Positions 23,916 through 48,890 of a stretch of 49,621 nt of DNA are shown piece by piece; the first letter of the stretch is position 1, and the number at the start of each line of letters is the position of its first letter. The stretch lies in the NCBI GenBank assembly GCA_021734685.1, contig JAIPIL010000001.1, forward strand, positions 1 through 49,621. The letters run 5' to 3'. Under the pieces are notes generated by a model that made no database searches, had not been told where the DNA came from, and saw only the letters and a list, made by a program, of their open reading frames with translations. Source of the stretch: Minisyncoccota bacterium (GTDB taxonomy: Bacteria > Patescibacteriota > Minisyncoccia > Minisyncoccales > PWPS01). The translations under genes were made by a program, and so were the position numbers.

Positions 23916-23920
23916 CTATT

Positions 23921-33729: not shown

Positions 33730-33756
33730 ATTCTAATCTCTAAGATATTGTTTTTT

Positions 33757-34094
33757 ATGTTTCCTCAAAAAAATAGGTTACGAAAAAGAAAAGAGTTTGA
33801 GGATGTATTCAAAAAAGGAAAAACCTTTTTTGCTTCTTTTTTTTTGTAAAAATAAAAGAGAATAGTTTTAACTTCTCTAGATTTGCCTTTGTTGTTCCTA
33901 AAAAAGTAGAGAAAAAAGCAGTTGAAAGAAATAGAACAAAAAGAATGATGAGAGAAATTTTTAAAGAGTTTTCGGTTTGTTTTAATAGAAGTGTAGATTT
34001 GATTTTTATTACTCAAAAAAAAATAAATAAAGAAGATAGAGAAAAAGCAAAAAAGGAAGTAGAAAGAATTTTAAAAAAAGCAAAATTAATATGA
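33757..34094 (+). pseudogene. rnpA: RNase P protein component RnpA, interrupted by a frameshift at a T9 homopolymer (33837..33845)
   Basis: Frame 0 gives MFPQKNRLRKRKEFEDVFKKGKTFFASFFL then a stop at 33847. The -1 frame continues ...VKIKENSFNFSRFAFVVPKKVEKKAVERNRTKRMMREI...KLI to 34094. One extra T restores a full-length ~112-aa RnpA. Confidence 0.7.
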
Positions 34095-34795: not shown

Positions 34796-34838
34796 TAAAA
34801 AAAGCATCGCGGACTCCGCCCCCGCGATGCTTTTTTTG
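34796..34838. terminator. Bidirectional intrinsic terminator (A6-gcatcgcgg-loop-ccgcgatgc-T7) between convergent yidC and the virB4-like gene
   Basis: 9-bp GC-rich stem with an A-run and a T-run. Confidence 0.7.
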
Positions 34839-34856: not shown

Positions 34857-36641
34857 TTAGAAGCCTGTTTTTGCTTGTTTTATTTTTTGAAGTTCTTCTG
34901 GGGAAGAAGTTATTATCTGATCTTCTGCGTAAGAAGCAGTTATTCTTATTACCACATGTTTTTGTCCGGCAAAAAATATTCCTTCCCCAACTTCTCCCTC
35001 TAAAAGAGTTGATTTTTCTTCTCCAGTTAAATTGAAAGTTTCTTGAACAGTGTCTATAACTGCGGGAGATTGTTTAAGAAGTATTTTTAAAGCAGAGTTG
35101 TTAACAATTGGTTTTCCGTAACTTGAAGACATAAAATCAGAAACATCTTGAGTTATTGTAGATACTCCTAGCCAGTATTTTCTTGCTCTTTTAACTAATC
35201 CAAAAAGGAAAGAGGCTCCATCTTCGTGCTTCATCATTACCCACGCCTCATCAACAATAAACAATCTTTTCTTCATAGAAGAGGTTATTGTTTTCCAGAT
35301 GTAACGAGAAACAATAAACATTGCAATCGGTCGCATCTCATCTTCAAGGTCTCTTATTCCAAAAACAGTTATATTGTTATCCATTGTAACATTTGTGTAC
35401 TGGTTAAAAAATTCAGAATATGTTCCTTGGGTAAATTTTCCTAAACGAAGAACAAGATTTCTTGTTCCTTCCATTGAGTCTAAAACTTGCTCTAAATCAG
35501 AGAAGATAGGAATGTTTTTTTCCCAAGTAGAAGGGTCACTTTCAGGAGTTATATCTTTGGCAGCGTATGTTTCAGTGATTGCTTGGTCTATAATAGAATC
35601 TTCTTCAGGAGTAAGTCCTCCTAACATAATGCGGAGAAGACCAACAAGCCCGATAGTGTTTCTTCTTATAACTTCTGCAGGAGTTTCTCCTTCTACGGGG
35701 ACAGGAATATCAAAAGGATTAATATGATTATCAGAGCCGAGAGAAATATTAAAGAAAGATCCCCCAGCTGCTTCAGCAAGTGTTTTGTATTCGTTGTCAG
35801 GATCAATAATAATGACATCTATTCCACTCATCAAAGAACGAAGAGCTTCTAGCTTGACTAGATAAGATTTTCCACCTCCAGAAACGCCGAAGATGACAGA
35901 GTTTGCATTTTCCAGTGAGAATCTATCAAAAATAACAAGAGAGCGATTGCTTGCATTTATTCCGTATAAGATTCCATCATTAGAAGTGAGATCAAAAGAA
36001 ACAAAAGGAAAAATACTAGAAAGAGGTTCGGTATTCATTGGGGTTTTTGTGTTTACAAGGTCTATCCCAAACGGACAACTACTTATAAATCCTCCTGATT
36101 GTTGAAAAAGGGTTGGTCGGATGTAAACAGAACTTGATTCAAGAATTGATCGTAGGGTGTTCTCAATGTCTTCAGTTTCTTTTTCTGAATCACCAAAAAC
36201 AGTTATATAAAGACCTAACTGAAACATCTTCTCTTCAGCCATCTGTAAGCGATCTCTAAGTTCTTCCATGTCACCGTGAGCAGTTTCCAAAATAGGATCT
36301 CTTATATTTCCTTTTTCTCTTTTCTCCATTATTTCTGCTTGAGTAGCAGTTATCTGTTTTCTTAATTTTTTCAAAACATCACCAGTGTTTGCTGGGGTTA
36401 TGAAAAAAGATATATCTAACTGAGTATTAAGGTTTATAATAGAAGAAAGCCAACCAGCGTTTAAATAACGAGGATAAGAAAAAACAAAAAAAGAACGAGA
36501 GTATCTTTCTCCAAGCTTCAGATGTCCTTGTTTTTCATCAATAGAAGAAGGAGCGATAATATCAACAATTCTTAAAACACCATCGTCCTCCTCTTTCTTC
36601 TTTTTCCCAATTAAATTTTTAAAATCATCTATAAAAGACAT
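34857..36641 (-). CDS. VirB4/TrsE-family type IV secretion ATPase (ATPase domain)
   Basis: Walker A IFGVSGGGKS, Walker B RLFIVDEAW, C-terminal motifs, and the overall AAA_10/DUF87-like pattern of conjugal-transfer VirB4 proteins. Confidence 0.75.
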   Translation of the reverse strand: MSFIDDFKNLIGKKKKEEDDGVLRIVDIIAPSSIDEKQGHLKLGERYSRSFFVFSYPRYLNAGWLSSIINLNTQLDISFFITPANTGDVLKKLRKQITATQAEIMEKREKGNIRDPILETAHGDMEELRDRLQMAEEKMFQLGLYITVFGDSEKETEDIENTLRSILESSSVYIRPTLFQQSGGFISSCPFGIDLVNTKTPMNTEPLSSIFPFVSFDLTSNDGILYGINASNRSLVIFDRFSLENANSVIFGVSGGGKSYLVKLEALRSLMSGIDVIIIDPDNEYKTLAEAAGGSFFNISLGSDNHINPFDIPVPVEGETPAEVIRRNTIGLVGLLRIMLGGLTPEEDSIIDQAITETYAAKDITPESDPSTWEKNIPIFSDLEQVLDSMEGTRNLVLRLGKFTQGTYSEFFNQYTNVTMDNNITVFGIRDLEDEMRPIAMFIVSRYIWKTITSSMKKRLFIVDEAWVMMKHEDGASFLFGLVKRARKYWLGVSTITQDVSDFMSSSYGKPIVNNSALKILLKQSPAVIDTVQETFNLTGEEKSTLLEGEVGEGIFFAGQKHVVIRITASYAEDQIITSSPEELQKIKQAKTGF

Positions 36642-36852
36642 ATAATATAATTTTCAATTTTCAATTTGGCAATTTTCAATGAATGACTAAATGAAAAAAG
36701 CACCAAATCACAAGCATCAAATTCCAAATAAATTCAAAATCCTAAATTCAAAATTCAAAACAATCATTGTCATTCCCGCGAATGCGGGAATCCAGTTTTG
36801 GAAATTAAAAAATTGAAAATTCATTGAAAATTGAAAATTGCCAAATTGAAAA
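36642..36852. mobile_element. MITE-like element (same 40-bp inverted arms as 23757..23915), enclosing one copy of the CTGGATTCCCGC hairpin; directly abuts the virB4-like start codon
   Basis: Left arm 36649..36691, right arm 36813..36852, internal hairpin 36768..36795. The 51 bp at 36642..36692 are nearly identical to 37488..37538. Confidence 0.5.
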
Positions 36853-36860
36853 TTCTTTTG

Positions 36861-37487
36861 TTATCTTGTTAATTCTTCTGGGAATTCTGGGTAGTATCCT
36901 TTTTCGGCGCTTTTTGAGTGGAAGACTGACCAGAACAGTTCAATTATTTCAACAGTTGTTAGTGGGGCAGAGTGAAGGCCGCATCTTCTTAGCCCTAAGG
37001 CAACAAATTCCATTCTTTGGTAAAGCTGTCTTTTCCCACGGAGAAAACTGTCTTCAGTTATATCTTCTTCATCTCCTTTCTTCTTTCTTGAAAACTCAAC
37101 TCCTGATGAGTTGTAAGGAACAACAACAAAAAATCGTTTAGAATAGATGGATTCTTTTTCTATAAAATCTTCTAAAAATTGCCGATATCCAGCGGTTTGT
37201 TGTTGAAGAAGTTGATTGGTTTGTTTTTTTTCAATTTCTTTTATCTTTTCAATATATCCTGTAATGTTTGTTTTTCTTGACTGAACGACGATCTGACATG
37301 TGAAGTCAAGGGAATTTAGAAACGATTGGAAACGATCTATTATTGCTTTTTGTTCATCAGGGGATTTAAGAGCGATATTAACAGAAGAAACCATAAGAAT
37401 TCCTCTTATTCCTCCAGCACTTAAAATAACAGTACCTTCACGGATCTGCTTAATAGGGATAAAGTCTTGAGTGCTTTTAGTGGACAT
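36861..37487 (-). CDS. Cytoplasmic protein, possibly the detached N-terminal domain of VirB4
   Basis: 208 aa with no TM, beginning MSTKSTQDFIPIKQIREGTVILSAGGIRGIL, which resembles the N-terminal segment of Gram-positive-type VirB4 proteins. It sits between PrgI/VirB3-like and VirB4-ATPase genes. Confidence 0.35.
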   Translation of the reverse strand: MSTKSTQDFIPIKQIREGTVILSAGGIRGILMVSSVNIALKSPDEQKAIIDRFQSFLNSLDFTCQIVVQSRKTNITGYIEKIKEIEKKQTNQLLQQQTAGYRQFLEDFIEKESIYSKRFFVVVPYNSSGVEFSRKKKGDEEDITEDSFLRGKRQLYQRMEFVALGLRRCGLHSAPLTTVEIIELFWSVFHSKSAEKGYYPEFPEELTR

Positions 37488-37646
37488 ATAATATAATTTT
37501 CAATTTTCAATTTGGCAATTTTCAATGAATGACCAAATTTCCAAATAATTTAATTTTCAAAGATAATTTCCTTTATTAATGTTTATAAAATTAGGAAATT
37601 AAGAAATTGAAAATTCATTGAAAATTGAAAATTGCCAAATTGAAAA
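37488..37646. mobile_element. MITE-like element (third copy), filling the intergenic space between the PrgI-like gene and the 208-aa gene
   Basis: Left arm 37495..37538, right arm 37607..37646, in inverted orientation. Confidence 0.5.
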
Positions 37647-37649
37647 TTT

Positions 37650-38057
37650 TTATGCTGTTTCTATGAACTTGTTTACATCGCTTAATCTTCCTTTTGTTGC
37701 TTTTTTCTTTTTTTGCTTTACTACTGGTTCTTCTTTTTTTCTTTTGCTTGGTTGGTTAACTTTTATAATATAGTCTTTCTTTTTCCAAAGGTATCTTTTA
37801 TAGGAAGTACTGAAAAAAATAACTTTCTTTATATAACTTGGTAGTGGTTCTCCGTTTTTTTGAAAAAAAGCAAAAGCAATACCGACTGCTCCAACTAAAA
37901 AAGCAAGAGTGTAAAAAATTGGGGATGTTCCTCCAAAAACAACAAATAAAAGCAAAATAACAAAAGCGGCAACAGCAAGATATCCGAGTTGAGAAAAAGA
38001 AGCTGGCCCTAATATCTTTGCTTCTCTTTCAATATAATGAGGAACTTTGTAGCGCAT
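37650..38057 (-). CDS. PrgI/VirB3-like small membrane protein
   Basis: MRYKVPHYIEREAKILGPASFSQLGYLAVAAFVI followed by a second TM. This matches the PrgI-family pattern (basic N-terminus, ..E.KI.GP.T.RQ..YL, two TMs). Start is the ATG at 38057, because the track start is a TTG. Confidence 0.55.
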   Translation of the reverse strand: MRYKVPHYIEREAKILGPASFSQLGYLAVAAFVILLLFVVFGGTSPIFYTLAFLVGAVGIAFAFFQKNGEPLPSYIKKVIFFSTSYKRYLWKKKDYIIKVNQPSKRKKEEPVVKQKKKKATKGRLSDVNKFIETA

Positions 38058-38061
38058 AAAG

Positions 38062-38192
38062 ATATAGAAACATTTGACATTTAACAATTGACATTTGACT
38101 GTTGATATATATTCTGGATTCCCGCGTTCGCGGGAATGACAGTGGTTTCAATGGTCAATAGTCAAATGTCAACTGTCAATTACTATTCTATC
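38062..38192. repeat. Composite intergenic repeat: GTCAA-type heptamer arrays in inverted orientation flanking the hairpin element 38114..38141
   Basis: Left catttgacatttaacaattgacatttgactgttga, right ggtcaatagtcaaatgtcaactgtcaatt. The hairpin is CTGGATTCCCGCGTTCGCGGGAATGACA. Confidence 0.7.
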
Positions 38193-38240
38193 ACAAAACA
38201 ATCCTTTGACAATATTTTTTTTTAAAGTTAAAATGAACTA

Positions 38241-40787
38241 ATGATTAAGGGCAAAAAACTAATATTACTTTTTGTTTTTTTTATCTGTTTTTTTGCAGTT
38301 GCTTTTACATATGGAACAGAAGTTGATTATCCAGAAATAATGGGAACAACAGTAGGGGAAGATTCTTCAGTTGGTGATTTTGTTCAGTATCTTTTTAAGC
38401 TTACTATATTATTATCGGTTGTTGCTGTTGCAGGAATAATTCTCTATGGTGGTTTTGTATATCTAACCTCTCCAATAAATCCAGAGAAAAGAAAAGATGC
38501 GCAAAGAAGAGTTTATAATGGATTTGCTGGTCTTTTTATAATTCTTTCCTTTGTTGTGGTCGTGAATGCAATTAATCCTGATCTGCTAGAAATAGACCTT
38601 CCTTCACTAGGAATTGAAACAGGAGAAGATCCAGAAGATGTTTATTTTGGTGAAGAGTTAAGTGGAGATCTAGTTGTGGAAGAAGTTCCGGTTGGAACAT
38701 ATATGGAAGAAGAACTTAGTCCGATTTCAACAAGAATAGATACAATAGAAACAATGGATGAGTTAAAAGAAATGATTGAAGAAGAGAGAACTTTTAATCC
38801 TACAGTAAAAGGAATATCTGGGCTTAATCATTATCTTTTAAGTATCTCTGACGAGTGTTCTTGTGACAATGCTACTTGTTACTGTGCTCCTTCTTGCCCA
38901 ACTGGGATGCCTGAATTAGGGTGCCAGTCGCTTTTTTGTTCAGGTGATGTTTGTGATAGTGGAGATGGAGAACCTCGGGAAACAATGGAAGAGATTGAAG
39001 AGATAAATAAAGAAATAACAGAAGATCTTCAAAACATAAAAAATCAATTAGCATCGTATAGAGATGATTTCAAGAAAAGATTAAATGTTTTTCAAGAACT
39101 TGAAAAAAGAAAAAATGATTGCGCAGTTCAAGGACCGATAACTGAAAACGAGAAGACAAAAATAGAATCTTATCTTGAAAAAAGAGAGATGGATATTACG
39201 GTTAAAACTCACAAAGAGATGGGGATTACAGGAAGTGTTCCAAATCCATTAGATGCACACTGTGTTGTTGGTGGGCGACTTGTTGATTCTGGTGATTTTC
39301 CAAGAGAAGACCCAGCTTTTTTTGATAGATTATGGGAATTGGATTATATGGAAAGAATTGTTTGTCCTTACGAGTACCAGATTGGTGAAATATTTGACAA
39401 AACAAGAGAGTTGGCAATTATTAAGGTTATAAAGTTAGAGATATTAGTTGAAAGAGTAGAAGAGTTGTTAGTAGAAATACAGAAAGTAAGTGAATATGTT
39501 TCTGACATAGGAGTTCACAACTGTGAGCCAGATTGTAGTTGTATTTATAATCCTTGTTATAAACTTTGCTACCTGCCTTGGTGTTCTGCATTTTGTTACT
39601 GTATGTGTCTTGACTGTGTGGGAGGATGTATTGAAGAAGCTTCTCCTTACGGAGGGTTAATAAAAAGTGGAGATAGAGGTAAGATATACGAATCAGTTGA
39701 AAAAATGGAAGAATTGGAAGAAGAAATTCTTTTGCTTATAAAAGAGATTAACAGCACTATTATAGAAATAGCCCTTCCTATAAATCAGAGAGTTGTAATT
39801 ATCACTGATGTAAATATTCAAGGAAGCTCTGATTCAGCAGTAGTAGGAGAAAGTTATCTTGTTACCGACATAGATACAGTAAGTGATCGCTTGAAAATAT
39901 ATGATGATATTGGACAGAAAGGAGAAGGGGAAAGAAAAGAAGAAGGGTGGATTTCATTTGGTTCTTTTGAATTTGAGAACGATGAGATAGAAAAGATAAA
40001 ACAAGCAGCTAGTGAATGTTACACTCCAGTAGAATTATCATCATCAGGTGAAGAAAATTGGATTACTTTGAATAGAGAGAAAGCAGTCGGTAATTATGGT
40101 CCATTAGATTATCACATACTGACAAATCCTCATCCAAGAAATCTTTTTTGTTGTTCATATTCTGAAAACACAAAAGAACAGTATAGTGTTCCTGATCGTT
40201 ACAGTCTTGATTACAATATAATTCCCGCAGAATCATTTGATCCTTTATTGGAGTGGAGTGATGATGATAACTGTATTGAAGGATATGATTGTGCTTCGGA
40301 AATATCTTTACCAAGTGAGGCTGACTATACACAATATGATGATGCTTCTTTTAAATTAAAACAACAAATTACTTGCATGAGAAATGAACTTGACACAATT
40401 CAGATGAAAGAAGAGATCGGGCTTGATGATGATGGGAACATAACTGATCCAATCGGAGATATTTCATATATAACCGACCATCGTCTTTACGAACCATACA
40501 ACTCTTGCTCTTTTATTTTTGGAGGTGATTGTAGTTTTGATCACACGATGGTTTACGGGCAGAAAAGAATATCGCCACACTACGGAGGAAGTAAGTGTTA
40601 TGAAACAAAACTTTCTTATGCTGTTTCTTTTAGTGATGTTGAAAATGCAGAATATATTATAAAAGCCTCAAAAGCTTGTAATGCATCAAGTTATGTGACA
40701 TACATTCCTGTTTCCGCAGAAGGAGAAACTTCTTCTAAGCATATTCAAGTTAGTATAGCGGGAGCTTATGGTTGTGGAGCAGATTAA
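38241..40787 (+). CDS. Large secreted cysteine-rich protein with N-terminal VirB2/TrbC pilin-like domain (putative pilus-associated adhesin)
   Basis: Signal peptide plus a TM-loop-TM domain (…ILYGGFVYLTSPINPEKRKDAQRRVYNGFAGLFIIL…INPDLLE) that aligns with the small paralogs at 6836..8029 and with 43676. It is followed by ~700 aa with dense Cys clusters (CSCDNATCYCAPSCPTGMPELGCQSLFCSGDVCDSG; CEPDCSCIYNPCYKLCYLPWCSAFCYCMCLDCVGGC). Confidence 0.5.
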   Translation: MIKGKKLILLFVFFICFFAVAFTYGTEVDYPEIMGTTVGEDSSVGDFVQYLFKLTILLSVVAVAGIILYGGFVYLTSPINPEKRKDAQRRVYNGFAGLFIILSFVVVVNAINPDLLEIDLPSLGIETGEDPEDVYFGEELSGDLVVEEVPVGTYMEEELSPISTRIDTIETMDELKEMIEEERTFNPTVKGISGLNHYLLSISDECSCDNATCYCAPSCPTGMPELGCQSLFCSGDVCDSGDGEPRETMEEIEEINKEITEDLQNIKNQLASYRDDFKKRLNVFQELEKRKNDCAVQGPITENEKTKIESYLEKREMDITVKTHKEMGITGSVPNPLDAHCVVGGRLVDSGDFPREDPAFFDRLWELDYMERIVCPYEYQIGEIFDKTRELAIIKVIKLEILVERVEELLVEIQKVSEYVSDIGVHNCEPDCSCIYNPCYKLCYLPWCSAFCYCMCLDCVGGCIEEASPYGGLIKSGDRGKIYESVEKMEELEEEILLLIKEINSTIIEIALPINQRVVIITDVNIQGSSDSAVVGESYLVTDIDTVSDRLKIYDDIGQKGEGERKEEGWISFGSFEFENDEIEKIKQAASECYTPVELSSSGEENWITLNREKAVGNYGPLDYHILTNPHPRNLFCCSYSENTKEQYSVPDRYSLDYNIIPAESFDPLLEWSDDDNCIEGYDCASEISLPSEADYTQYDDASFKLKQQITCMRNELDTIQMKEEIGLDDDGNITDPIGDISYITDHRLYEPYNSCSFIFGGDCSFDHTMVYGQKRISPHYGGSKCYETKLSYAVSFSDVENAEYIIKASKACNASSYVTYIPVSAEGETSSKHIQVSIAGAYGCGAD

Positions 40788-40796
40788 AAATAAAAA

Positions 40797-43670
40797 ATGA
40801 AAAAAGATTTTTATAAAAAAATATTTTATACACCGTTAGCTGTTTTTCTATTTTTAGCAGTAATATCTATTATAAATCAGCAAACAGTAGTTGTTGGTGA
40901 TTATTTTCGTCCAGCTCCAGAAAGATTAAATATTATTGTTGATGAGATAGAGCAAGTTCTTTATGATATTGCTGGGTCAGAAACAGGAGATGATCTTTTT
41001 TCTGAAGTTACATCACTAATGCAAGAAGCGGATTGTCAATATGCAGACTCTCTTTGTAGAGAAGAAGGATGGACTACGGTTGGAGGGTTGATGGAGATTA
41101 GAAGTTGTGGAGTAATAGATAATAATGGGGTTGTTGGTAATTTATGGAGTAGTGAAAGTAAGCAAGAAGATTTTTATGCAAAGCAAGAAGAACTTCAAGA
41201 AAAAAAAGAACAGTTACAGTTTCTTCAGAACATATTAAAAAAAGAGATGAATCACGGAATTGCAAAAGACATTCAACAGATGAGAATTCAAGGAATGGAT
41301 GACGAAGCAGATATGGTAGAAGAAGAGTTGGGACTTCTCCTCTTTCTATTAGACCCTAATGATTCTGAAACAAGAGAGATATTAGATGAGGAGATTATAG
41401 AAGAAGGAGAGTCAATTTTAAGCAGTTCAGGAGTCAGTTGGTCAACAGAGTCACTTGTTAGTATATTAGATGAAGTAGTATCAATCTCTCCTGAAGGAGC
41501 AAAAGCTTCTTGCGTTCATGTTTGTGATCAAGAATACACAGTTACATTTTGTTTTAATACCACAAAACAAGAGAGTGTTGATCTGGTTTTTAATATAGCG
41601 CTTGAAATAAGTGATTTAGTTATAGACCCGATAGAGATAAAAGAGATAGTTTTGGCTCTTCCAGAAGAAGTTGATATTCCTGAAGTAAAATTGCAGTTTA
41701 GTATTCCTATTCCTGATATTAGCACGATAGAAGGAGGTTTTTCTATTGAAACAGAACCATCTCCAGAAAAGGGATTTTATTCTGATGAGATATGGTTGTC
41801 TTGTCCTGAATATGAAAATCACTCATTAAGTTATGGAGAGGTGGATATTGGAGAGATAAATCCAACAGAGATGAAGTGGTTTTTTGAAACATACGGCTAT
41901 CTGTCTGATGGGTGTAATAAAATAACATCTACTTTGTATGATCCGATAGACCCACTTTGCTATGATCCAAAAACAGTAATTTCAAGAACATCATCAAAGT
42001 GTGCAAGTATTTGGGGTTGTAATCCAGAAGCTCTTACTTGTAACTGTGGAGGGGCTGACTGCACTCTCTGCGAAGACCTTTACTGTGCTTGTCCGGATAC
42101 AGAGTGTAGCAGTTGTACTATAAAAAACGCTCAAGCCGAGGCGTGTGCTTCTCTGTTTTTAGGAGCAGGATCACCTATTCCTAGTGCTTGTACTCCTTCT
42201 GTAGATAAGGATGGGATGACTACTTGGCCTGGTGATATGTTGCCAGTAATGAAAGATAAGTGCTTAGAGATACTAGAGGAAGAAAAAGAAAAAAGTGTTG
42301 ATGATCAAGATGACATGCCTTACGAGTGTGCACTTGTTGCTGCTTGGGAAGGAGACATAGATCTCTATTCTGATGGATATTCAGAAACAATTGGTGGAGG
42401 CTCTGTTAATCTTGATGAGGGAAAGATCGGAGTTCTTCCTGACAGTTTTATTGGTTGTGATCCTCCAGAGATTCCTTCTTTTCCTAAAATTCCTCTTTCT
42501 GATTTTAATATAGAGATACCTGACATAAAAACACCTGATATTAATTTTTGTCCGATTGTTAAAGTTCAATTACCAGATGTGATAATAGAGGATTTGGAAT
42601 TTCCAGACATAGAACTTTGTAATTTGCAAGAATGTCAAGAACTTTTAGATTTTTTCCCAAATTTTATTGATGGTTTACCAACATTAGGAAGATTTCAAAT
42701 AGAAGTTCCGCCGTTAGATATTAATCCAATAGAGATAGACGGAATTGGAGTTGATATAGAGATAGCTCCTTTAGAAAATCTTTCTTTGGATTTTCATATG
42801 CCACAGATGCCTAATCTAAACTCTATATCTCTTTCTGAGTTTATATACGAAATTCCAGGGATAGAGATGCCGAACCCAGAGTTAACTTTTTCTTTTGGAG
42901 GAATAAATATAGATCTGATGTCAGCACTTATCGGATTTATTTTAAACTTTATTATGGCTGATCTACCAGGAGGATGTGCTACTCTTGGCGTTAAAATAGG
43001 ATGTTTAAGTGTTGTTTTTGAAGATTACCATCTTTCTTGGGGCGATTTTCCCAAAATACCAGAGATACCTGCTTGTGTGACCGCTCAAGAATTTTGTCGT
43101 GATTCAAAAAAGAAGTTAGGACAGTTGATAGACACAACAAACGAGATTGCTGAAGGAATACAAAGCACAGTTGGTGGCGTTCTTCAAATTCCAAGTGACA
43201 AGATTGATGAGATTGAAGCGTTAATAAATGAGAAAGTTCAGGAGAAAGAAGAAGAGATAAATGATATGGTTGAAGATTACGATCTTGTTGGAGAAATTGG
43301 AGAAGAGTTAATTGAACTTATTGATATTGGTGATATAGAGATAGATATTTCTTTAACTGATATTGCTGGAATTCCAGAAACAGTAACAATTCCCTGGGAT
43401 GCATTGGGAGTTGAGCCAAAAATCACTCTTTCTAACCCGATAGAGATTGAAATGCCAACAATTCCTTTATCAGATATAGGGGTTGAAAAAGAACTTATAA
43501 TATATATTCCTTTCTTACAGGTAAAAGAATTATTTAGTGCCGACATTGGAGGGTCAAGTTGTGAAAGTGACACTTCTAGCCAATCACTTTTTCAAGATTT
43601 CTTTGATAATAATTTTGACACTAAACTTGAGTTACAAGTAGAAGATATAATTAACATAATAGAAGATTAG
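40797..43670 (+). CDS. Large acidic, cysteine-containing secreted/surface protein with internal (I/F)P(D/E)I-type short repeats
   Basis: N-terminal signal anchor. Cys-rich block (CNPEALTCNCGGADCTLCEDLYCACPDTECSSC), then repetitive IEIPDIKTPDINF / LEFPDIEL / PPLDINPIEIDGIGVDIEIAPLE segments. Very D/E-rich. Confidence 0.45.
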   Translation: MKKDFYKKIFYTPLAVFLFLAVISIINQQTVVVGDYFRPAPERLNIIVDEIEQVLYDIAGSETGDDLFSEVTSLMQEADCQYADSLCREEGWTTVGGLMEIRSCGVIDNNGVVGNLWSSESKQEDFYAKQEELQEKKEQLQFLQNILKKEMNHGIAKDIQQMRIQGMDDEADMVEEELGLLLFLLDPNDSETREILDEEIIEEGESILSSSGVSWSTESLVSILDEVVSISPEGAKASCVHVCDQEYTVTFCFNTTKQESVDLVFNIALEISDLVIDPIEIKEIVLALPEEVDIPEVKLQFSIPIPDISTIEGGFSIETEPSPEKGFYSDEIWLSCPEYENHSLSYGEVDIGEINPTEMKWFFETYGYLSDGCNKITSTLYDPIDPLCYDPKTVISRTSSKCASIWGCNPEALTCNCGGADCTLCEDLYCACPDTECSSCTIKNAQAEACASLFLGAGSPIPSACTPSVDKDGMTTWPGDMLPVMKDKCLEILEEEKEKSVDDQDDMPYECALVAAWEGDIDLYSDGYSETIGGGSVNLDEGKIGVLPDSFIGCDPPEIPSFPKIPLSDFNIEIPDIKTPDINFCPIVKVQLPDVIIEDLEFPDIELCNLQECQELLDFFPNFIDGLPTLGRFQIEVPPLDINPIEIDGIGVDIEIAPLENLSLDFHMPQMPNLNSISLSEFIYEIPGIEMPNPELTFSFGGINIDLMSALIGFILNFIMADLPGGCATLGVKIGCLSVVFEDYHLSWGDFPKIPEIPACVTAQEFCRDSKKKLGQLIDTTNEIAEGIQSTVGGVLQIPSDKIDEIEALINEKVQEKEEEINDMVEDYDLVGEIGEELIELIDIGDIEIDISLTDIAGIPETVTIPWDALGVEPKITLSNPIEIEMPTIPLSDIGVEKELIIYIPFLQVKELFSADIGGSSCESDTSSQSLFQDFFDNNFDTKLELQVEDIINIIED

Positions 43671-43675
43671 TTTAA

Positions 43676-44929
43676 ATGAAAAAAATACTGTTTTTAATTT
43701 TCTTTCTTGCCTTTCTTGTTTCTCCACTGCTTGCTTTTGGAGATGATCCTTATGATCCAAATTTAGAAATAGAGTATCAGTGGCTAGATGATGCTGCCAA
43801 TGAAACTGAACAGGTTGGTACTTATGTTGCTTATCTCTTTGATTTTGGAGTAATAATTGTTGGGCTAATTCTTTTCGGAGCGCTTATTTACGGCGGTTTT
43901 GTTTTTATGACATCGGCGGGGGATCCGGGAAGAAGATCGGAAGCAAAAAGAAAAATAATAGCAGCGTTTTTAGGAACGATTCTTCTTCTTGGTTTTTATG
44001 TTTTAATAAATGAGATAAACCCTGACCTTCTTCAAGTTTCAGTAGAAGAACCAGAAGAGATAGAATATCCACCACTACCAGCAGGGCCTTATATCTGCAA
44101 TTTTGATTTTCCAGAACTTGACAGTATTCTTACTGATTATGTAAGTGCTGACGCTGAAACAAGAAACAGTGCTATACAGTTATTCTATGAAAAATTAAAA
44201 GAACGAGATAGCGATGAATATTGTATGGAGATAAAAACTCCAAAAGACACCGATTTTGGATATTTAACAGGAAGTAATGGTAATTATTTTGTTATTCCAG
44301 AGCTAGATGGAGGAACTCCTACTTATAATTATGGAGTTATTATTTTTGCTGAAGAAGATGGACTAAGAAAATCAAAAGCAAAAGGAGATGGAGTTATATG
44401 TTATGTATCTACTGGAGAAGTTACTGGAGGAGAAATAGACACAGGATTTTATATGAAATCAGTGGCACCGATAAGACTGAAACCTGACGAGCAAGGATGG
44501 GTTTACCTTTATGAAGGATATAACTTTAATGATGAAGATGATCCTAAAAACAATGAATATACAGGAGGAGCTTTAAAAGAATTATCAGTTCCACTAGGAC
44601 CAGGATCAAAAGAATCATTAATGACAGAAGCAATACTGGGAGCTGATTTTGTTTGTGGTATGATGAGTAGTTTTTGGAGTTCTGATAAACATCACTGCGG
44701 AATAAGGTCGTTTGAAATTGGAGAACCTGCTCCGGTTTTCGCTGTTTTTAAGACAGATGATGGTTCTTATGAACGATGTAATATAGCCAATAATAATTTT
44801 GGAGACTTGTCATCTCTTCTTCCAGGGTCAATTATAAAAGGAAATGACGATCTTGAAGGACTTACGCAAGTTTTTAAATTTAATGAAATTCATCTAATAA
44901 AAGGATATTTGATGGATTCAGAAAGATGA
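43676..44929 (+). CDS. Secreted protein with N-terminal VirB2/TrbC pilin-like domain plus ~300-aa globular domain
   Basis: …LILFGALIYGGFVFMTSAGDPGRRSEAKRKIIAAFLGTILLLGFYVLINEINPDLLQ aligns with the 848-aa protein N-terminus and with the small pilin-like paralogs. Confidence 0.5.
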   Translation: MKKILFLIFFLAFLVSPLLAFGDDPYDPNLEIEYQWLDDAANETEQVGTYVAYLFDFGVIIVGLILFGALIYGGFVFMTSAGDPGRRSEAKRKIIAAFLGTILLLGFYVLINEINPDLLQVSVEEPEEIEYPPLPAGPYICNFDFPELDSILTDYVSADAETRNSAIQLFYEKLKERDSDEYCMEIKTPKDTDFGYLTGSNGNYFVIPELDGGTPTYNYGVIIFAEEDGLRKSKAKGDGVICYVSTGEVTGGEIDTGFYMKSVAPIRLKPDEQGWVYLYEGYNFNDEDDPKNNEYTGGALKELSVPLGPGSKESLMTEAILGADFVCGMMSSFWSSDKHHCGIRSFEIGEPAPVFAVFKTDDGSYERCNIANNNFGDLSSLLPGSIIKGNDDLEGLTQVFKFNEIHLIKGYLMDSER

Positions 44930-46947
44930 TTAAAAAACAATTTAAAAATATTCTCTCAAGTTTTAAAGAAACAAAAACCCTTCTTTTTGCTTCGGTTTTC
45001 GCTTTGTCTGCTCCTCTTCTTGTGAACGCAAATTTTGTTTATGAAGGAATGGTGAGTTTTTTTGTGACTATTGCAAAAATTCCCTATTACTTAACAATAT
45101 ATCCAGCGATATGGATGACTGATCTTTTGTCTTTTGTGACAAGCTCTGATTTTATTACTTTTTCATATACAGGAGGAGATAATCCCGCTATTGCTGCTGG
45201 TCTTCCGATAACGCAAGGAATATCAAATATAATTTTAATACTGGTTTTACTGATTGTTATTGTTGGAATAATTCTTGAACTGAACGAATACGGATCAAAA
45301 AAGATGTTCGTTAAATTGTTAATAGTGGCTCTTTTAATAAACTTTGCTCCACTGCTCGTCGGTTTAATTGTTGACGCAAGCAATGTTCTTATGAATTATT
45401 TTATTGCAGGAATTGGAGATGAGATAAGCGCAATAAAAAGCACAATTGCTGGTGATGGGGGAAAGTTAATATTAGAAGAACTGGACGCAGAAGGGAAAGC
45501 GGGAGGAATTACAGAAGATATGTTAGTGCCAGTAGCTCTCCTTCTTATGCAGGCATTTATTAATGTCATAATGATTTTCGTTCTTTTCTTGTATGCTCTT
45601 TTATATATCTGTCGTTATATCGCAATATGGATTATTGTGATTCTTTCCCCGATCGCATTTGTTTGTATGATTCATACAACTACACAGAAATTATGGAAAG
45701 ATTGGTTTAAGCAGCTGATGCAGTGGTCACTTGTTGGTGCAACAGGAGCTTTCTTTCTTTACTTGTCTTTAAAAGTTAATTCTGAAATAAGAGCAGCGTA
45801 TGATACGGTTGGGATTCCAGTAGAAGGAGAGTCATTTATTTCAGACACTTTTAGTGCTATTCTTCCTCTCGGAATGGTGGCGATTTTTGCAGTAATGGGA
45901 TATATCTTAGCAATAAAAACCTCAGCGATAGGAACAGATAAAATAATAAATGTTGGACAATCAACAAGAAGGAGAGCAGTGAAGTGGGGCGCTGTTGGCG
46001 GTTATGTTGCTGGAAAATATGGAGCAAAGAAAGCAAAAGAAGGAGCGCAGTGGGGAGGAAATAAGATAGCTGGAGATAGAGCAAAAGGATGGTCAACAAA
46101 AGAAAACTGGGGAGAAGGCGAGAGTGGCTTTAAGGGATGGGCAAAAAGGACAGCAGGAAAGCCAATAACTGGAACGGCAAGAGCAACGGGAAGATTCTTT
46201 GGTCCAGGAGCTGAAGAACAACAACAAAACAAAGAACAAGAAAAGATAAATAAAGAGAAAGAGAAGTGGAAAGGAAGAAGCACTGATATTAAAGCTTCAA
46301 ATATAATGGGTGAGGGAAACAAGAGAGATATGGGAGCAGTGGTTAGTGCTGCGATAGAAGATGGAGATTTTGAAGATTTGATGAAAACTCCAGCTGGAAA
46401 GAAAATTCAAGAAAATTATGCCAATATCTATAAAACAATGAGTAAAGGGGGATCTGATAAGGCGATAAAAGAAGCACTTCCAGTTGAGTATCTTAATATG
46501 AAAAAAGCGGAAGGAATTAGTGAAAGCGAACTTGAAAAAGAAACAATGAATATCGCTAGAAATGGTGATGCATTAAAAGGATCAGCAAAACAAATTGAAA
46601 AAAGAATAGAAGAGGGCGACGAGATGGCAATGAAGCTTGGAAGAAATATATTACAACAAAAAACTAACACCATTCAGTCGTTTGTTGATAACGCCGAGAA
46701 AGGAATGAAAGCGTTTGAGCAAGTAGCTACACAATACTACAATAAGAATGAAGGATCCTTGAAAAATGCTTATAAGATATCTAGCGATGGAGATAAGATT
46801 AATGCTGCTATCTACACCCTTAATCCTTCGTTTGTTAAACACATTGACAAATCTCCAGGACAGATTATAACTGACATAAAAACTCCAGAATTAAAACAAT
46901 CTAGTGGAGGATCACCAATAGTAGATCAGTATGGAAACCCACTTTAG
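44926..46947 (+). CDS. VirB6/TrbL-like polytopic membrane protein with Gly/Lys-rich hydrophilic C-terminal tail
   Basis: Signal sequence, five or more hydrophobic helices across 250 aa (…IILILVLLIVIVGIIL…, …VLFLYALLYICRYIAIWIIVILSPIAFVCMI…), then a long charged tail. The start overlaps the upstream stop (ATGA), suggesting translational coupling. Confidence 0.45.
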   Translation: MIKKQFKNILSSFKETKTLLFASVFALSAPLLVNANFVYEGMVSFFVTIAKIPYYLTIYPAIWMTDLLSFVTSSDFITFSYTGGDNPAIAAGLPITQGISNIILILVLLIVIVGIILELNEYGSKKMFVKLLIVALLINFAPLLVGLIVDASNVLMNYFIAGIGDEISAIKSTIAGDGGKLILEELDAEGKAGGITEDMLVPVALLLMQAFINVIMIFVLFLYALLYICRYIAIWIIVILSPIAFVCMIHTTTQKLWKDWFKQLMQWSLVGATGAFFLYLSLKVNSEIRAAYDTVGIPVEGESFISDTFSAILPLGMVAIFAVMGYILAIKTSAIGTDKIINVGQSTRRRAVKWGAVGGYVAGKYGAKKAKEGAQWGGNKIAGDRAKGWSTKENWGEGESGFKGWAKRTAGKPITGTARATGRFFGPGAEEQQQNKEQEKINKEKEKWKGRSTDIKASNIMGEGNKRDMGAVVSAAIEDGDFEDLMKTPAGKKIQENYANIYKTMSKGGSDKAIKEALPVEYLNMKKAEGISESELEKETMNIARNGDALKGSAKQIEKRIEEGDEMAMKLGRNILQQKTNTIQSFVDNAEKGMKAFEQVATQYYNKNEGSLKNAYKISSDGDKINAAIYTLNPSFVKHIDKSPGQIITDIKTPELKQSSGGSPIVDQYGNPL

Positions 46948-46952
46948 TTAAA

Positions 46953-47363
46953 ATGAACAACGAAAAAATAACAAAAAACGAATATTTGGAGATATACAGA
47001 AAACTTCCCAAAGAAGTGAAGGATCTCTTCTGGTCTGAGGAGGTAGTTTTAGTTATTAAAAAATTAGAACAAAGGTACAATATCAGAGGAAACGCACTTC
47101 CAGTTATTGTTGGCTTTGTTCTTCTGGGATTAGTTCCTCTTTCTAATATCTCTAAAACGATAAGAATAAAAACCAGAATAAGCGAAGAAGAAGCAGAAAG
47201 TTTAGCAGATGACATCAAAAGACACATTCTAAAACCTGTTAAACATTTTTTAGAAACAGAGTATGAAGAAGAGTTCGCTCTTCAAGAAAAAGAAGGTGAT
47301 GATGAAGAGATAAAAACAGCTCTCAAAAAAGCAAAAACAGATCCGTATAAAGAACCATTTTAA
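46953..47363 (+). CDS. Hypothetical single-pass membrane protein (last gene of the + strand T4SS-like operon)
   Basis: One TM (ALPVIVGFVLLGLVPL) and an acidic C-terminus. No recognizable motif. Confidence 0.4.
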   Translation: MNNEKITKNEYLEIYRKLPKEVKDLFWSEEVVLVIKKLEQRYNIRGNALPVIVGFVLLGLVPLSNISKTIRIKTRISEEEAESLADDIKRHILKPVKHFLETEYEEEFALQEKEGDDEEIKTALKKAKTDPYKEPF

Positions 47364-47398
47364 TAAAAAGAGGGGAGGTGTTAGACACCTCCCCTTTA
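47364..47398. terminator. Bidirectional terminator hairpin (aggggaggtg-ttaga-cacctcccct) with flanking A/T runs
   Basis: 10-bp perfect stem between the convergent 136-aa gene and the SPFH gene. Confidence 0.65.
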
Positions 47399-47414: not shown

Positions 47415-48740
47415 TTAGAGATTTGCTCTTTTTATCATTTTTTTTCTTTCTTCGGCTGAAAATGGAACTTCACTGCTTCTATTAGCAGGAGGAGTTCCAC
47501 CGCCACTGTTTCCACTTCCGTCAGCAATTGTTTTAGCAAAAGCAAGGAGATCTACTCCGCCTCCCTTGCTTCCTTCAACAGAAACAATTTTTCGGTCAAC
47601 TCTTTCCCCAGCGGTTGTTTCTACAAGGTTTACGGCAAGCTCCGGAGATATTCCGGACTTGATATATCCCCTGATCATCTGCTTCTTCTTCTTGAAGCGA
47701 ATTTCAGCTGCTCCCATCTTGGCAACACTACTTCTTTCTTGTTCAAAAGCTCGTTGCACCTCTTCTGAGAAGTCAACTCGCGCCATCTTGAAGCGGGCAA
47801 CTTTAATTCCGTAGAGCTTTTCAGTTGGAGAAAATTTTTCTTCAGGAACGATGTCGTCAAGTTCAAAAAGCAGGTTGATCCTTCCGATGTTGTCGTTGTA
47901 GAAGGCGATTAGGTCAATTTCGCCACCTTCTTTTTTCAGATTCCACTCGTTCGGGTCAAGTTTTTTTCGGATAGTTTCAAGTTTTCCGATTAAAACTTGA
48001 TCACTGGTCATTCTTTTCCAACGGTCAATATCTTTTCTCGAGACGATGATTCCCATTATCTTTTTTGCCTCTGGAGTTGGAGCTTTTCCAAACTCTTTTC
48101 GGACTTCATCGGCTGCTACTCCAACAGCATTTCCATTATCATCCACCTCAACTTCATTGAGATAGTAGTGAGGCGGTCTTTCCAGACGAAAAACACAATC
48201 GATCAGAACCGCAACCTTGGCACGGTTTTGATAGAAGTCGTCAGCATCTTTTGTTCCGCATACCGACCCGAATTCATCCTCAATGGTGTCCACCATCCCT
48301 CTCTTGATCGTATCTTCTGTCATCTCAATGTAGGTGTTCAGATCGTAAGGGCGGTACTGAACAGAGCCAGTCATCTTGATAACAATTCTGTCTTTTGAGG
48401 TTGCTTCGGTGGTAACCTCAGCCGTTGTCAGTTTTTTCTCAAAGACCTCTTCTAGAACATCAACGAGAGGAAGAAGAAGATGGAGACCTTCTTCTAAGAT
48501 TCTAACTTCTCCATTTTTTTTCTTTACTCTTTTTCCAAACCGAGTAGGAATGGCGCCGTGAACGGTCGGAACCCTTGCCAATGAGTTAAAGGCAAGAATA
48601 AGAGCCACAAGGACGAAACCGACAAGCAAAGAGATTATGGGAAAAAATTGAAAATAAACAAATCCGACAACCAACAGTGAAACGATGACGAGCAAGGTAA
48701 ACGCGCTTTTGTTTTTAAGAAACTTTCCTGACTTTTCCAT
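47415..48740 (-). CDS. SPFH/band-7 (stomatin/prohibitin/flotillin-like) domain membrane protein
   Basis: N-terminal TMs, then a PHB-like core (…RVPTVHGAIPTRFGKR…RILEEGLHLLLPLVD…) and the characteristic …VQRAFEQE… helix. Gly-rich C-terminus. Confidence 0.65.
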   Translation of the reverse strand: MEKSGKFLKNKSAFTLLVIVSLLVVGFVYFQFFPIISLLVGFVLVALILAFNSLARVPTVHGAIPTRFGKRVKKKNGEVRILEEGLHLLLPLVDVLEEVFEKKLTTAEVTTEATSKDRIVIKMTGSVQYRPYDLNTYIEMTEDTIKRGMVDTIEDEFGSVCGTKDADDFYQNRAKVAVLIDCVFRLERPPHYYLNEVEVDDNGNAVGVAADEVRKEFGKAPTPEAKKIMGIIVSRKDIDRWKRMTSDQVLIGKLETIRKKLDPNEWNLKKEGGEIDLIAFYNDNIGRINLLFELDDIVPEEKFSPTEKLYGIKVARFKMARVDFSEEVQRAFEQERSSVAKMGAAEIRFKKKKQMIRGYIKSGISPELAVNLVETTAGERVDRKIVSVEGSKGGGVDLLAFAKTIADGSGNSGGGTPPANRSSEVPFSAEERKKMIKRANL

Positions 48741-48853: not shown

Positions 48854-48890
48854 CCCCCCCCCATGTCCAACCCGGGGTTGGACATGGGGA
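48854..48890. repeat. REP palindrome upstream of RAYT (C9-ATGTCCAACCCGGGGTTGGACATGGGG)
   Basis: Perfect 15-bp arms. Same sequence as 2041..2070 and 49591..49620. Confidence 0.8.

Follow-up and report, generated by a model that had tools for sequence, protein, structure and literature searches.

A dnaA-proximal type IV secretion locus on a Patescibacteria contig encodes pilin-domain fusion proteins with large, cysteine-rich predicted ectodomains

The DNA analysed here, referred to as the window, is one entire contig of 49.6 kb from a Patescibacteria MAG, and the module of interest extends from position 34857 to 47363. All eight genes listed in an earlier note on this sequence are present as open reading frames. 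The note had described two convergent operons with a terminator-free junction between them, and this arrangement has to be corrected. The operons diverge from a 153 nt spacer (38088–38240), and the convergent junctions are the outer ends of the module, each with a terminator-like hairpin. The left hairpin (34797–34836), which reads GCATCGCGG...CCGCGATGC and is followed by a T-run, lies between the convergent genes yidC and virB4, the right one (47371–47395) between the gene for a 136 aa protein and a convergent SPFH gene. The divergent spacer is a candidate promoter region by match to the consensus: the hexamers TTGACA-17-TAAAAT on the plus strand (38206–38234) match 11 of 12 consensus positions, and the hexamers TTGTCA-16-TAGAAT are present on the minus strand (38212–38185). 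A GC-rich hairpin (38114–38147) is located within the same spacer.

The gene at 34857–36641 (minus strand) encodes a VirB4-type ATPase of 594 aa, as had been proposed. The protein scored 363.7 bits against NCBIfam NF045971 (VirB4-like, CD1110 family; cut-off 325) and matched Pfam P-loop_TraG (8e-25) as well as VirB4 (4AG5, 8.8e-37) and TrwK (1.8e-7) in the PDB. Walker A (GVSGGGKS at residue 252) and Walker B (LFIVDE at residue 460) are both intact. All runner-up models were VirB4, TraC or TrbE, and DUF87/HerA reached 1e-7, in a 60-residue stretch surrounding the P-loop; the ATPase is VirB4 and not a member of FtsK/HerA. It covers positions 185–732 of the 752 positions of NF045971 and corresponds to the C-terminal two thirds of a full VirB4. 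Directly upstream, in a position that is conserved in relatives, a gene for a TrsD-like protein of 208 aa is found (36861–37487, minus strand). This protein matches positions 2–118 of the same CD1110 model, which bears out the suggestion that it represents the VirB4 N-domain, and it also matches NF045975 (6e-13) and TrsD NF041427 (2e-7, although its 31 bits fall short of the cut-off, 200). The two proteins add up to 802 aa, about one full VirB4, and a full-length VirB4 with N domain and ATPase in one polypeptide is not encoded at this locus. A pseudogene or frameshift was ruled out as the reason for the split: because all relatives examined show the same split, and wherever a relative has the PrgI-TrsD-VirB4 run the domain has a gene of its own, it corresponds to a TrsD-like arrangement. 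The orthologues of the 208 aa protein in loci L014 and L020 carry PF26593 (TraC-like); L-numbers (L001–L020 etc.) denote the homologous loci that were compared.

The first gene of the virB4 operon (37650–38057, minus strand) encodes a small membrane protein that had been described as PrgI/VirB3-like, and its match to PF12666 (2.7e-8, 34.7 bits, gathering score 27) agrees with this description. The open reading frame comprises 145 aa from a TTG at 38087 and 135 aa from an ATG at 38057. The ATG is probably the true start, judging from the sequences compared: homology to relatives begins at residue 11, and in the identical locus L016 the protein is called with 135 aa. A hydrophobic stretch at residues 34–75 fits two helices; one was scored in a window scan.

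The plus strand operon starts with a gene for a large pilin-domain fusion of 848 aa (38241–40787). A signal peptide is followed by a VirB2-like two-helix hairpin (about residues 44–111) and an acidic ectodomain of 730 aa. The match to PF18895 (T4SS_pilin) was just under the gathering score (5.5e-5, 23.6 bits), NF045849 was matched with 3e-4, and the hairpin aligns in register with the other pilin-domain proteins of the contig. The second pilin-domain fusion, of 417 aa, is encoded at 43676–44929 (plus strand) and has the same organisation with a 300 aa ectodomain; its matches to PF18895 (2.5e-7, 31.1 bits, gathering score 26.6) and NF045849 (2.3e-9) are stronger. In both fusions the two hydrophobic helices are separated by a Lys/Arg-rich loop. 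Their C-terminal domains place both proteins outside the size of VirB2 pilins (about 70–140 aa), which would suit helical packing in a pilus.

Between the fusion genes lies a gene for an acidic protein of 957 aa (40797–43670, plus strand) with a pI of 4.05 and a single hydrophobic helix at the N-terminus; it has no match in Pfam, NCBIfam or the PDB and no domain that is known. The earlier note had called it an acidic repeat protein. The acidic character stands, and the label of a repeat protein was dropped, as self-BLAST found no internal repeats. The note's description of the large proteins as Cys-rich is correct, with 34 Cys in the 848 aa protein and 32 in the 957 aa protein, conserved in relatives; across 67 homologues the Cys of the 848 aa family are nearly invariant. 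The 848 aa and 957 aa families are unrelated in profile-profile comparison (hhalign probability 0.4%). PDB sequence searches with the 957, 848, 417 and 208 aa proteins or their profiles returned chance-level matches.

Structure prediction for the 848 aa protein by AlphaFold (AF2) depended on the alignment: seven close homologues gave a pLDDT of 37 and an unusable model, and 67 diverse homologues gave a pLDDT of 85.1 and a pTM of 0.78. The latter model shows a long helical bundle; the ectodomain probably has Cys knots in this bundle and, in addition, a barrel of the SH3 type and an alpha/beta domain. Foldseek against the PDB returned nothing at E <= 1e-3; the best match was SH3-like, covered about 65 residues and had an E of about 0.2. 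The structure search otherwise gave generic helical-bundle and 4-helix-bundle matches, with no specific PDB relative. An exhaustive search with the 848 aa protein yielded 3437 representative hits. Long pilin-domain proteins (>300 aa) with a high Cys content (median 4%) account for at least 130 representative clusters. All 10 family representatives that were looked up are nameless or annotated as "hypothetical protein". A word-indexed search found six close relatives each for the 848 aa and 957 aa proteins, and a repeat homologue search with an alignment including a distant homologue added one partial close relative. When metagenome DNA was searched with the 957 aa profile, one locus was found, apparently the L011/L012 contig again by match region and identity.

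The gene for the 417 aa fusion overlaps the following gene by a start/stop ATGA at 44926–44929, as had been noted. This next gene (44926–46947, plus strand) encodes an extended VirB6/TrbL-like polytopic membrane protein of 673 aa, whose first 330 residues hold at least five hydrophobic helices and are followed by a hydrophilic tail of 340 aa. The polytopic architecture proposed earlier is thus found and similarity to TrbL exists, but the match to Pfam TrbL (PF04610; 3.9e-4, 20.7 bits) is weak and stays below the gathering score of 25.9. PF19590 (TrbL_3) is a precomputed match of the identical protein (E <= 1e-5) and of a homologue with 40% identity; our own scan did not reproduce it. A 3-sequence VirB6 profile had TrwI as its sole PDB match (E 0.2), which disappeared with a 6-sequence profile, and one of the six members of the latter is matched by Pfam TrbL. 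Taken together, similarities to both pilin and VirB6 families do exist at this locus. The last gene of the operon (46953–47363, plus strand) encodes the small 136 aa membrane protein, which falls into no known family and has a single hydrophobic helix at residues 48–66. It is conserved within the T4SS clusters of relatives, where homologues adjoin PrgI in L003 and L004; in L014 a 130 aa gene directly follows VirB6.

The earlier note regarded the module as built around pilin-domain fusions. Two fusions are indeed part of it, but three canonical VirB2-like pilins of 121, 131 and 138 aa are also encoded on the contig, at 6836–8062 (minus strand), 27 kb from virB4, which brings the number of VirB2-like pilin domains to five. 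The small pilins match PF18895 with 2.4e-9, 1.4e-12 and 5e-13 (37–49 bits, all over the gathering score) as well as TrbC (PF04956), and align with the fusion hairpins. Unlike the fusions, all three fit the usual pilin size, and they are the probable major subunits.

The module is chromosomal and located beside dnaA, dnaN, rnpA and rpmH. The proposed position next to oriC is supported by dnaN and dnaA at 30760–33443, with dnaA 1.4 kb from the module, and by a perfect DnaA box between dnaA and rpmH (TGTGGATAA at 33515), the only one of its kind in the window; 1.3 kb separate this box from the stop codon of virB4. Elsewhere the contig encodes housekeeping functions, among them gyrA, recG, ftsH, infB and ruvABC. 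A large serine recombinase (385–2073) and an IS200-like gene are also found on the contig. In line with the earlier note, no relaxase, VirD4/T4CP, VirB9/10/11 or lytic transglycosylase was detected among the open reading frames of at least 100 aa on the 49.6 kb contig, and the combination of mating-pair genes with a relaxase and a coupling protein that marks a conjugative element does not occur on it. No equivalent of VirB8 or VirB1 was identified at the locus, and a LysM-M23 peptidase that adjoins the cluster in relatives is absent from the window.

The closest relatives are MAGs of Nealsonbacteria, Paceibacterota and Parcubacteria. The three genes PrgI-TrsD-VirB4 are located beside yidC/dnaA/dnaN in L001–L004 and L020. 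As this chromosomal neighbourhood, with dnaA and yidC, is conserved, we rejected a mobile element; because the locus is fixed at this site across divergent relatives, it should be vertically inherited. The cassette of large pilin fusion, giant acidic protein, pilin fusion of about 415 aa and VirB6 is kept in this order in L011, L013, L014, L018 and L019, with 24–40% identity. In these five loci the homologues of the 957 aa protein occupy the same position (24–39% identity), always after the large pilin fusion. Orthologues of the 417 aa protein (414–439 aa) immediately precede VirB6 in L011, L014, L018 and L019, and in L013 a tblastn match is found in the same position, where the source annotation has no gene. 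Compared to L002, identity is 90% for VirB4, 80% for the 848 aa protein and 66% for the 957 aa protein, and by these values the ectodomain proteins evolve faster than the motor.

We consider it quite likely, on sequence evidence, that the module is a chromosomal, origin-proximal Patescibacteria T4SS related to MPF_FATA systems, which acts as a non-conjugative host-contact machine and displays pilin-anchored ectodomains. By homology, VirB4 together with the separate TrsD-like N-domain forms the ATPase, and the extended VirB6 would be the polytopic membrane platform. In related systems VirB4 is anchored by PrgI/VirB3, a small membrane protein. The complex of VirB4, TrsD, PrgI and VirB6 would pull VirB2-like hairpins from the membrane and assemble a short pilus or a wall-spanning stalk, mainly from the small pilins, and the 848 aa and 417 aa proteins could join or cap this structure via their own hairpin. 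Since the hairpin loop of the fusions is rich in Lys/Arg it should face the cytoplasm, which would put the C-terminal ectodomains on the outside of the cell, where they are probably stabilised by disulfides. Together with the co-conserved 957 aa protein they would form the distal, host-contacting end of the machine. Such an apparatus may support an episymbiotic lifestyle by host contact and import or export of molecules, with no relaxase-driven DNA transfer. A function as surface filament or adhesin for host attachment, as put forward in the earlier note, is a plausible candidate; fold similarity lends no support to the adhesin role, since the structure search gave generic helical-bundle matches. 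For the cassette itself we tentatively propose a hitherto unrecognised extracellular module of the Patescibacteria T4SS, in which the hairpins may serve as insertion handles that load fast-diversifying, disulfide-stabilised ectodomains onto a filament or stalk. It is possible that these ectodomains, and not type IV pili, decide which host is engaged and form the distal end of the conduit.

The 730 aa C-terminal domain could sterically block entry of the 848 aa protein into a VirB2-type helical filament. The large pilin-domain proteins may instead be stationary parts of the channel, anchored by their hairpins around VirB6, with the ectodomains and the 957 aa protein forming a wall-spanning stalk or cap that replaces VirB5/8/9/10. 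The strict co-ordering of the cassette and its translational coupling with VirB6 would fit such a role, as would the lack of detectable VirB8/9/10 at the locus, the long helical bundle of the 848 aa model, which is of a type used by stalk-like assemblies, and the separate small pilins, which are available for any filament. We nevertheless regard a purely stationary function as rather doubtful. An origin of the large Cys-rich proteins outside the secretion system, as independent surface adhesins or secreted effectors with a pilin-like anchor that lie beside the T4SS by coincidence, appears very improbable. It would agree with the lack of a T4SS domain in the 957 aa protein and with the occurrence of the C-terminal module of the 848 aa protein also in proteins without a pilin domain. 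However, the pilin domain is present in 147 of the 162 retrieved homologues (848 aa and 957 aa families together) and is N-terminal in nearly all cases, five other loci with 24–40% identity keep the same order of the cassette genes and VirB6, and the cassette has a start/stop overlap of 4 nt with virB6.

A functional machine for DNA transfer or uptake is unlikely. It would require an unrecognised relaxase, or import as by ComB of H. pylori or the archaeal Ced system, with the surface proteins acting as mating-pair or donor-contact adhesins. The nearest matches of VirB4 are indeed conjugative ATPases from Firmicutes and Mycoplasma ICEs, with a weak match to CedB, the pilin domain matches the ICE pilin-like family NF045849, and the serine recombinase and IS200-like genes share the contig. 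The role of the Patescibacteria T4SS was termed "completely unknown", and nucleotide or DNA uptake was raised as a candidate (PMC11665869). On the other hand, the window contains neither relaxase nor T4CP, and the fixed position by dnaA/yidC across divergent relatives points to vertical inheritance. The entire Patescibacteria dataset comprises 109 relaxases, which are seldom near virB4 (PMC12102498), and in Southlakia epibionticum competence is dispensable but the T4SS is essential (PMC12857230).

Epibiotic growth of S. epibionticum ML1, the one species tested, requires the Patescibacteria T4SS and its pilin array (Wang et al. 2023, PMC10633639; PMC12857230). If the large pilin-anchored proteins, together with the acidic 957 aa protein, form the part of this system that faces the host, they are candidate determinants of host range and candidates for the physical link by which these ultra-small bacteria feed on hosts. 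As the cassette combines conserved gene order and fast-evolving sequence with a confident structure model, it provides usable targets in cultivable relatives. The four-gene cassette, which fuses pilin-like anchors to large Cys-rich surface domains, is the new part of this locus. The module itself, the absence of a relaxase and the position at oriC add one more example to a system that is already published.

A relaxase-less, dnaA-proximal VirB2/3/4/6 system with TrsD was described for Patescibacteria before (PMC12102498, PMC10633639, PMC7427843), and Quinonero-Coronel et al. (2025) catalogued the T4SS of Patescibacteria (CPR) with the same gene set, no relaxase and proximity to dnaA (PMC12102498). 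The view of the earlier note, that a minimal VirB2/3/4/6 core of episymbiotic small-genome bacteria and not a conjugative element is present, matches these published systems (PMC12102498, PMC10633639). They share with our locus a VirB4 of the monoderm conjugation type, TrsD-like and PrgI/VirB3 genes adjoining virB4, a VirB6-like protein and PF18895 pilins, have no relaxase or T4CP nearby, and are chromosomal, beside dnaA, dnaN, rnpA and rpmH; the components were assigned here by profile matches, which are weak for VirB6. In the published systems the pilins are small VirB2-like proteins in arrays, whereas here 848 aa and 417 aa pilin-domain proteins flank the 957 aa protein, and this cassette is absent from the published descriptions (PMC12102498, PMC10633639). 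The array of small pilins is moreover 27 kb away in our case, and no LysM-M23/VirB1-like gene adjoins the cluster. No pilus has been demonstrated for the Patescibacteria T4SS so far (PMC12857230). The giant Cys-rich ectodomains had been singled out as the novel part. No description of giant Cys-rich, pilin-anchored ectodomain proteins was found in the searchable literature, but they belong to a large, widespread database family and are not specific to this locus.

With MPF_FATA systems (pCF10 Prg, pGO1 Trs, C. difficile CTn/CD1110-type ICEs, Mycoplasma ICE) the locus shares a CD1110-family VirB4, a TrsD-like protein, PrgI and the lack of outer-membrane core components, and its pilin hairpin is similar to that of the ICE pilin-like family Mbov_0395. 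Unlike these systems, it is chromosomal and origin-linked, not part of a mobile element, and lacks a relaxase, a T4CP, counterparts of VirB8 (PrgL) and VirB1 (PrgK) and an adhesin of the PrgB type. The contig encodes several VirB2-like pilins, while Gram-positive systems generally do not have such pilins (PMC12102498, PMC12857230). The polytopic VirB6-like N-terminal half with a long hydrophilic C-terminal extension is shared with the "extended VirB6" proteins of Rickettsiales (e.g., Anaplasma VirB6-4; reviewed in PMC12857230), but there is no detectable sequence relationship past the weak TrbL match, and the extension is much shorter here (about 340 aa).

The Gram-negative VirB2/TrbC pilins (A. 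tumefaciens VirB, R388 Trw, pKM101 Tra) likewise have a signal peptide and a two-helix hairpin, and the small pilins of our contig match TrbC/VirB2 (PF04956). In Gram-negative T4SS the tip adhesin VirB5 provides a parallel for a dedicated subunit at the distal end which makes contact with the target cell. The structure search with the 848 aa model gave generic 4-helix bundles and no specific similarity to VirB5 or another T4SS structure. In contrast to the separate VirB2 and VirB5 of the Gram-negative systems, hairpin and large ectodomain are combined here in one polypeptide.

The 848-aa (38241-40787, plus strand) and 417-aa proteins (43676-44929, plus strand) both start with a signal peptide, followed by the two-helix T4SS_pilin hairpin PF18895, which bears out their earlier description as pilin-domain fusions. 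In an exhaustive HMMER search the 848-aa protein matched 3437 representative clusters at E <= 1e-3, 372 at E <= 1e-10 and 37 at E <= 1e-30, and most of the best 150 matches were 400-1000 aa long. An HMM made from the hairpins in the window was run on 162 retrieved proteins. The hairpin was present in 147 of them, almost always at the N-terminus, and these proteins had a median length of 630 aa, 92% being longer than 300 aa. Median cysteine content was 4.07% in 130 long representatives, and 11 ectodomain cysteines of the 848-aa protein were nearly invariant among 67 homologues (20-48% identity). The HMMER counts, the hairpin survey and the content and conservation of cysteines show that large Cys-rich pilin fusions make up a sizeable, conserved family that has no name, and are no oddity of one contig. 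The earlier note had considered the Cys-rich ectodomains novel; in the literature searched, pilin fusions that are large or rich in cysteine are not mentioned, but the family is large and widespread in the databases. According to a preprint, PF18895 dominates structure clusters specific to freshwater, which is consistent with many different folds being joined to the pilin hairpin.

With 67 diverse homologues as input, AlphaFold gave a model of the 848-aa protein with a pLDDT of 85.1 and a pTM of 0.78 (only 7 close homologues resulted in a useless model, pLDDT 37). In this model the signal peptide at the N-terminal start is followed by the hairpin (helices 44-76 and 81-111) and a linker of low confidence (120-136). 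Further on comes a domain in which very long helices predominate (246-296, 381-421 and 481-511), with two cysteine clusters between them (206-238 and 428-463). A small beta-barrel (about 517-580) and an alpha/beta domain (about 600-848) form the C-terminal part; the latter is also found in proteins without a pilin hairpin.

The 957-aa protein (40797-43670, plus strand) is acidic, as previously stated, with a pI of 4.05, and its cysteine richness is on par with that of the 848-aa protein (32 versus 34 Cys). Its description as a repeat protein has to be dropped, since no internal repeats were detectable. No relative of the 957-aa family was found in Pfam, NCBIfam or PDB, and profile comparison revealed no similarity to the 848-aa family. 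The ATGA overlap between the 417-aa gene and the gene for the 673-aa protein (44926-46947, plus strand) is real. The 673-aa protein is polytopic and an identical protein has a precomputed match to PF19590 (TrbL_3), in agreement with the proposed VirB6/TrbL-like assignment, but its own TrbL/VirB6 match is weak (3.9e-4) and below the gathering score. Profiles gave no clear gain: a TrwI hit (E 0.2) obtained with three sequences was lost with six, of which one matched Pfam TrbL.

These four genes form a cassette, whose order was identical in all five family members looked up from other lineages: a large pilin fusion (800-1005 aa), a protein of 751-2116 aa that is homologous to the 957-aa one along most of its length (24-39% identity), a pilin fusion of 414-439 aa and a VirB6-like protein of 670-750 aa. 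One of these loci (L014) has small pilins and PrgI-TraC-like-VirB4 colinear with the cassette. A more distant member (L020) has another arrangement, directly after virB4. Identity to the close relative L002 was 90% for VirB4, 80% for the 848-aa protein and 66% for the 957-aa protein; thus, the surface proteins diverge fastest.

In the relatives, ksgA and a LysM-Peptidase_M23 gene often precede the cassette, and sometimes, as in the window, it is followed on the other strand by a Band_7/SPFH gene. This SPFH/Band_7 membrane protein is encoded convergently to the cassette and right after it in the window (47415-48740, minus strand) and in two distant relatives (L018, 12304-13515; L019, 19692-20891), the three sequences having diverged beyond tblastn detection; its place there may reflect a conserved functional link. 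In relatives (L011, 6044-9790; L014, 2885-3847; L018, 986-2047; all minus strand) the LysM-Peptidase_M23 protein beside the cassette is likely a VirB1 substitute. L011 also encodes an 803-aa DUF8128/DUF87/TrwB_AAD_bind ATPase that is possibly coupling-protein-like. Neither of these two proteins is present in the window.

All eight ORFs claimed for the module (34857-47363) were found at their given positions, and most of the family assignments proved right; the following three are on the minus strand. The 594-aa protein (34857-36641) has Walker A and B motifs and reached 363.7 bits against the curated NCBIfam family NF045971 (VirB4-like conjugal transfer ATPase, CD1110 family; cut-off 325). It also matched Pfam P-loop_TraG (8e-25) and the solved Thermoanaerobacter VirB4 (4AG5; 8.8e-37), and more weakly TrwK. 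Since similarity to HerA/FtsK is confined to the P-loop region, the protein belongs to VirB4 and not to FtsK/HerA. It covers positions 185-732 of NF045971, and positions 2-118 are covered by the 208-aa protein (36861-37487), which also matches the TrsD family (2e-7); together the two proteins comprise 802 aa. A frameshift as cause of the split was ruled out, because every relative with that part of the cluster has PrgI, the TrsD-like protein and VirB4 encoded by a gene each. Among T4SS accessory proteins of Patescibacteria, TrsD is reported to be the commonest (PMC12102498). The PrgI/VirB3-like protein (37650-38057) exceeds the Pfam gathering score, and the ATG at 38057 is more likely its start than the TTG at 38087. 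Among species-representative genomes, the closest virB4 loci are from Patescibacteria MAGs named Nealsonbacteria, Paceibacterota, Parcubacteria or, mislabelled, Saccharibacteria.

The two operons are not convergent, as had been proposed, but divergent, starting from a 153-nt spacer (38088-38240) with promoter-like hexamers on both strands. The convergent junctions are the outer ends of the module, each with a terminator-like hairpin. The closest match to a promoter in this region, TTGACA-17-TAAAAT (38206-38234, plus strand, 11/12 positions), ends just 6 nt 5' of the ATG of the 848-aa gene, a distance that suggests a leaderless or near-leaderless cassette transcript. Six copies of a 25-nt motif, AATTTTCAATTTGGCAATTTTCAAT (0 expected by chance), form inverted pairs bracketing three intergenic spacers (36642-36860, 37488-37649 and 23765-23917). 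The 56-nt leaders before the TrsD-like and virB4 start codons are nearly identical (98%), as are 64-nt segments after the PrgI and TrsD-like stop codons (94%). In more distant relatives no spacer separates the TrsD-like gene from virB4, so the bracketed spacers appear to be insertions specific to the clade, either MITE-like or regulatory. A GC-rich palindrome, ATTCCCGCGAAnGCGGGAAT, has five intergenic copies (2245, 4719, 13712, 36772 and 38118), two of them within the T4SS, in an otherwise AT-rich genome; these copies resemble REP elements.

Three canonical small VirB2-like pilins (121, 131 and 138 aa) are encoded as a tandem array at 6836-8062 on the minus strand, 27 kb from virB4, with an Hsp20 gene on one side and a methyltransferase gene on the other. 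All three score above the PF18895 gathering score and also match TrbC/VirB2. The view of a module built around pilin-domain fusions is correct as to the two fusions but overlooked this array, and the presence of three ordinary pilins means that the system is not made from fusion pilins alone.

Outside the module the contig has the content of an ordinary chromosome (gyrA, recG, tsaD/tsaE, ftsH, infB, rpsA, ruvA-like/ruvB/ruvC, yebC, a class A PBP, 18 tRNAs, dnaN, dnaA, rpmH, rnpA, yidC), and the sole perfect DnaA box of the window is at 33515 in the dnaA-rpmH spacer. Downstream of an intact rpmH (33598-33732), rnpA (33757-34090, plus strand) has an apparent frameshift at a T9 run near 33836-33846 that places the N-terminal part (RLRKRKEFEDVF...) and the RNR-motif part (ERNRTKRMMRE...) in different frames; this is either a homopolymer assembly error or a genuine frameshift. 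About 10 kb upstream of the T4SS are a type II/IV secretion-family ATPase (24522-25826, plus strand; T2SSE 5e-109), presumably the motor of type IV pili, and a protein with a Lamin-tail domain (26873-27502, plus strand). A tRNA-Ile with anticodon TAT (16335-16410, plus strand; ARAGORN) would be an uncommon decoding strategy; most bacteria decode AUA by a lysidine-modified CAT tRNA. At the contig start, a large serine recombinase (385-2073, plus strand; Resolvase, Recombinase and Zn_ribbon_recom domains) adjoins tRNA-Ser genes; an integrated element that has nothing to do with the T4SS may have its border here. The other end of the contig is occupied by a Y1 transposase gene of IS200/IS605 type (48916-49584), which has the same GC-rich palindrome of 30 nt on either side (48860-48889 and 49591-49620) and may be the reason why the assembly broke there.

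As homology shows, the cluster encodes a VirB4 motor whose N-domain is a protein of its own, together with an anchor of the VirB3 type, a platform of the VirB6 type and five hairpins of the VirB2 type. The inter-helix loops (PEKRKDAQRR and GRRSEAKRK) are basic and by the positive-inside rule would be cytoplasmic, which would place the C-terminal domains outside the cell; this location fits their conserved cysteines. By analogy to VirB4-driven pilin extraction in characterised systems, the motor would build a pilus or stalk, chiefly from the small pilins. The 848-aa and 417-aa fusions may be incorporated or docked via the same hairpin, and their ectodomains, with the 957-aa partner, would be displayed at the host-facing end. 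In the main rival explanation, which we consider less likely, the fusions would be fixed parts of a stalk or cap and take the place of VirB5/8/9/10. That the large proteins are adhesins encoded here by coincidence is highly improbable.

DNA transfer or uptake is an improbable function as well. Because no relaxase or T4CP is encoded on the contig and the chromosomal synteny is fixed, the machine most likely serves host contact and exchange of proteins or small molecules, not conjugation.

A VirB4/VirB6/VirB2 region was first reported in Saccharibacteria by McLean et al. 2020, and Tn-seq showed that Southlakia epibionticum cannot grow as an epibiont without its T4SS genes and pilin array (Wang et al. 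2023, PMC10633639). In their survey of Patescibacteria, Quinonero-Coronel et al. 2025 described a monophyletic VirB4 clade related to MPF_FATA, with TrsD, PrgI/VirB3, VirB6 and VirB2-like pilins (found via PF18895) close to virB4, an almost complete lack of relaxases, and a frequent location beside dnaA, dnaN, rnpA and rpmH, read as a gene-dosage effect (PMC12102498). These systems were also highlighted in a 2025 T4SS review (PMC12857230). The window locus agrees with the published systems feature by feature, including the DnaA box at 33515. The module itself is thus already published, and the earlier note, largely right in its interpretation but wrong on operon direction and the repeat label, mostly rediscovered it. 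The published work treats the pilins as small proteins in arrays, whereas the locus described here adds large Cys-rich fusions; what is new is that a conserved cassette with large ectodomains has been defined and its family sized.
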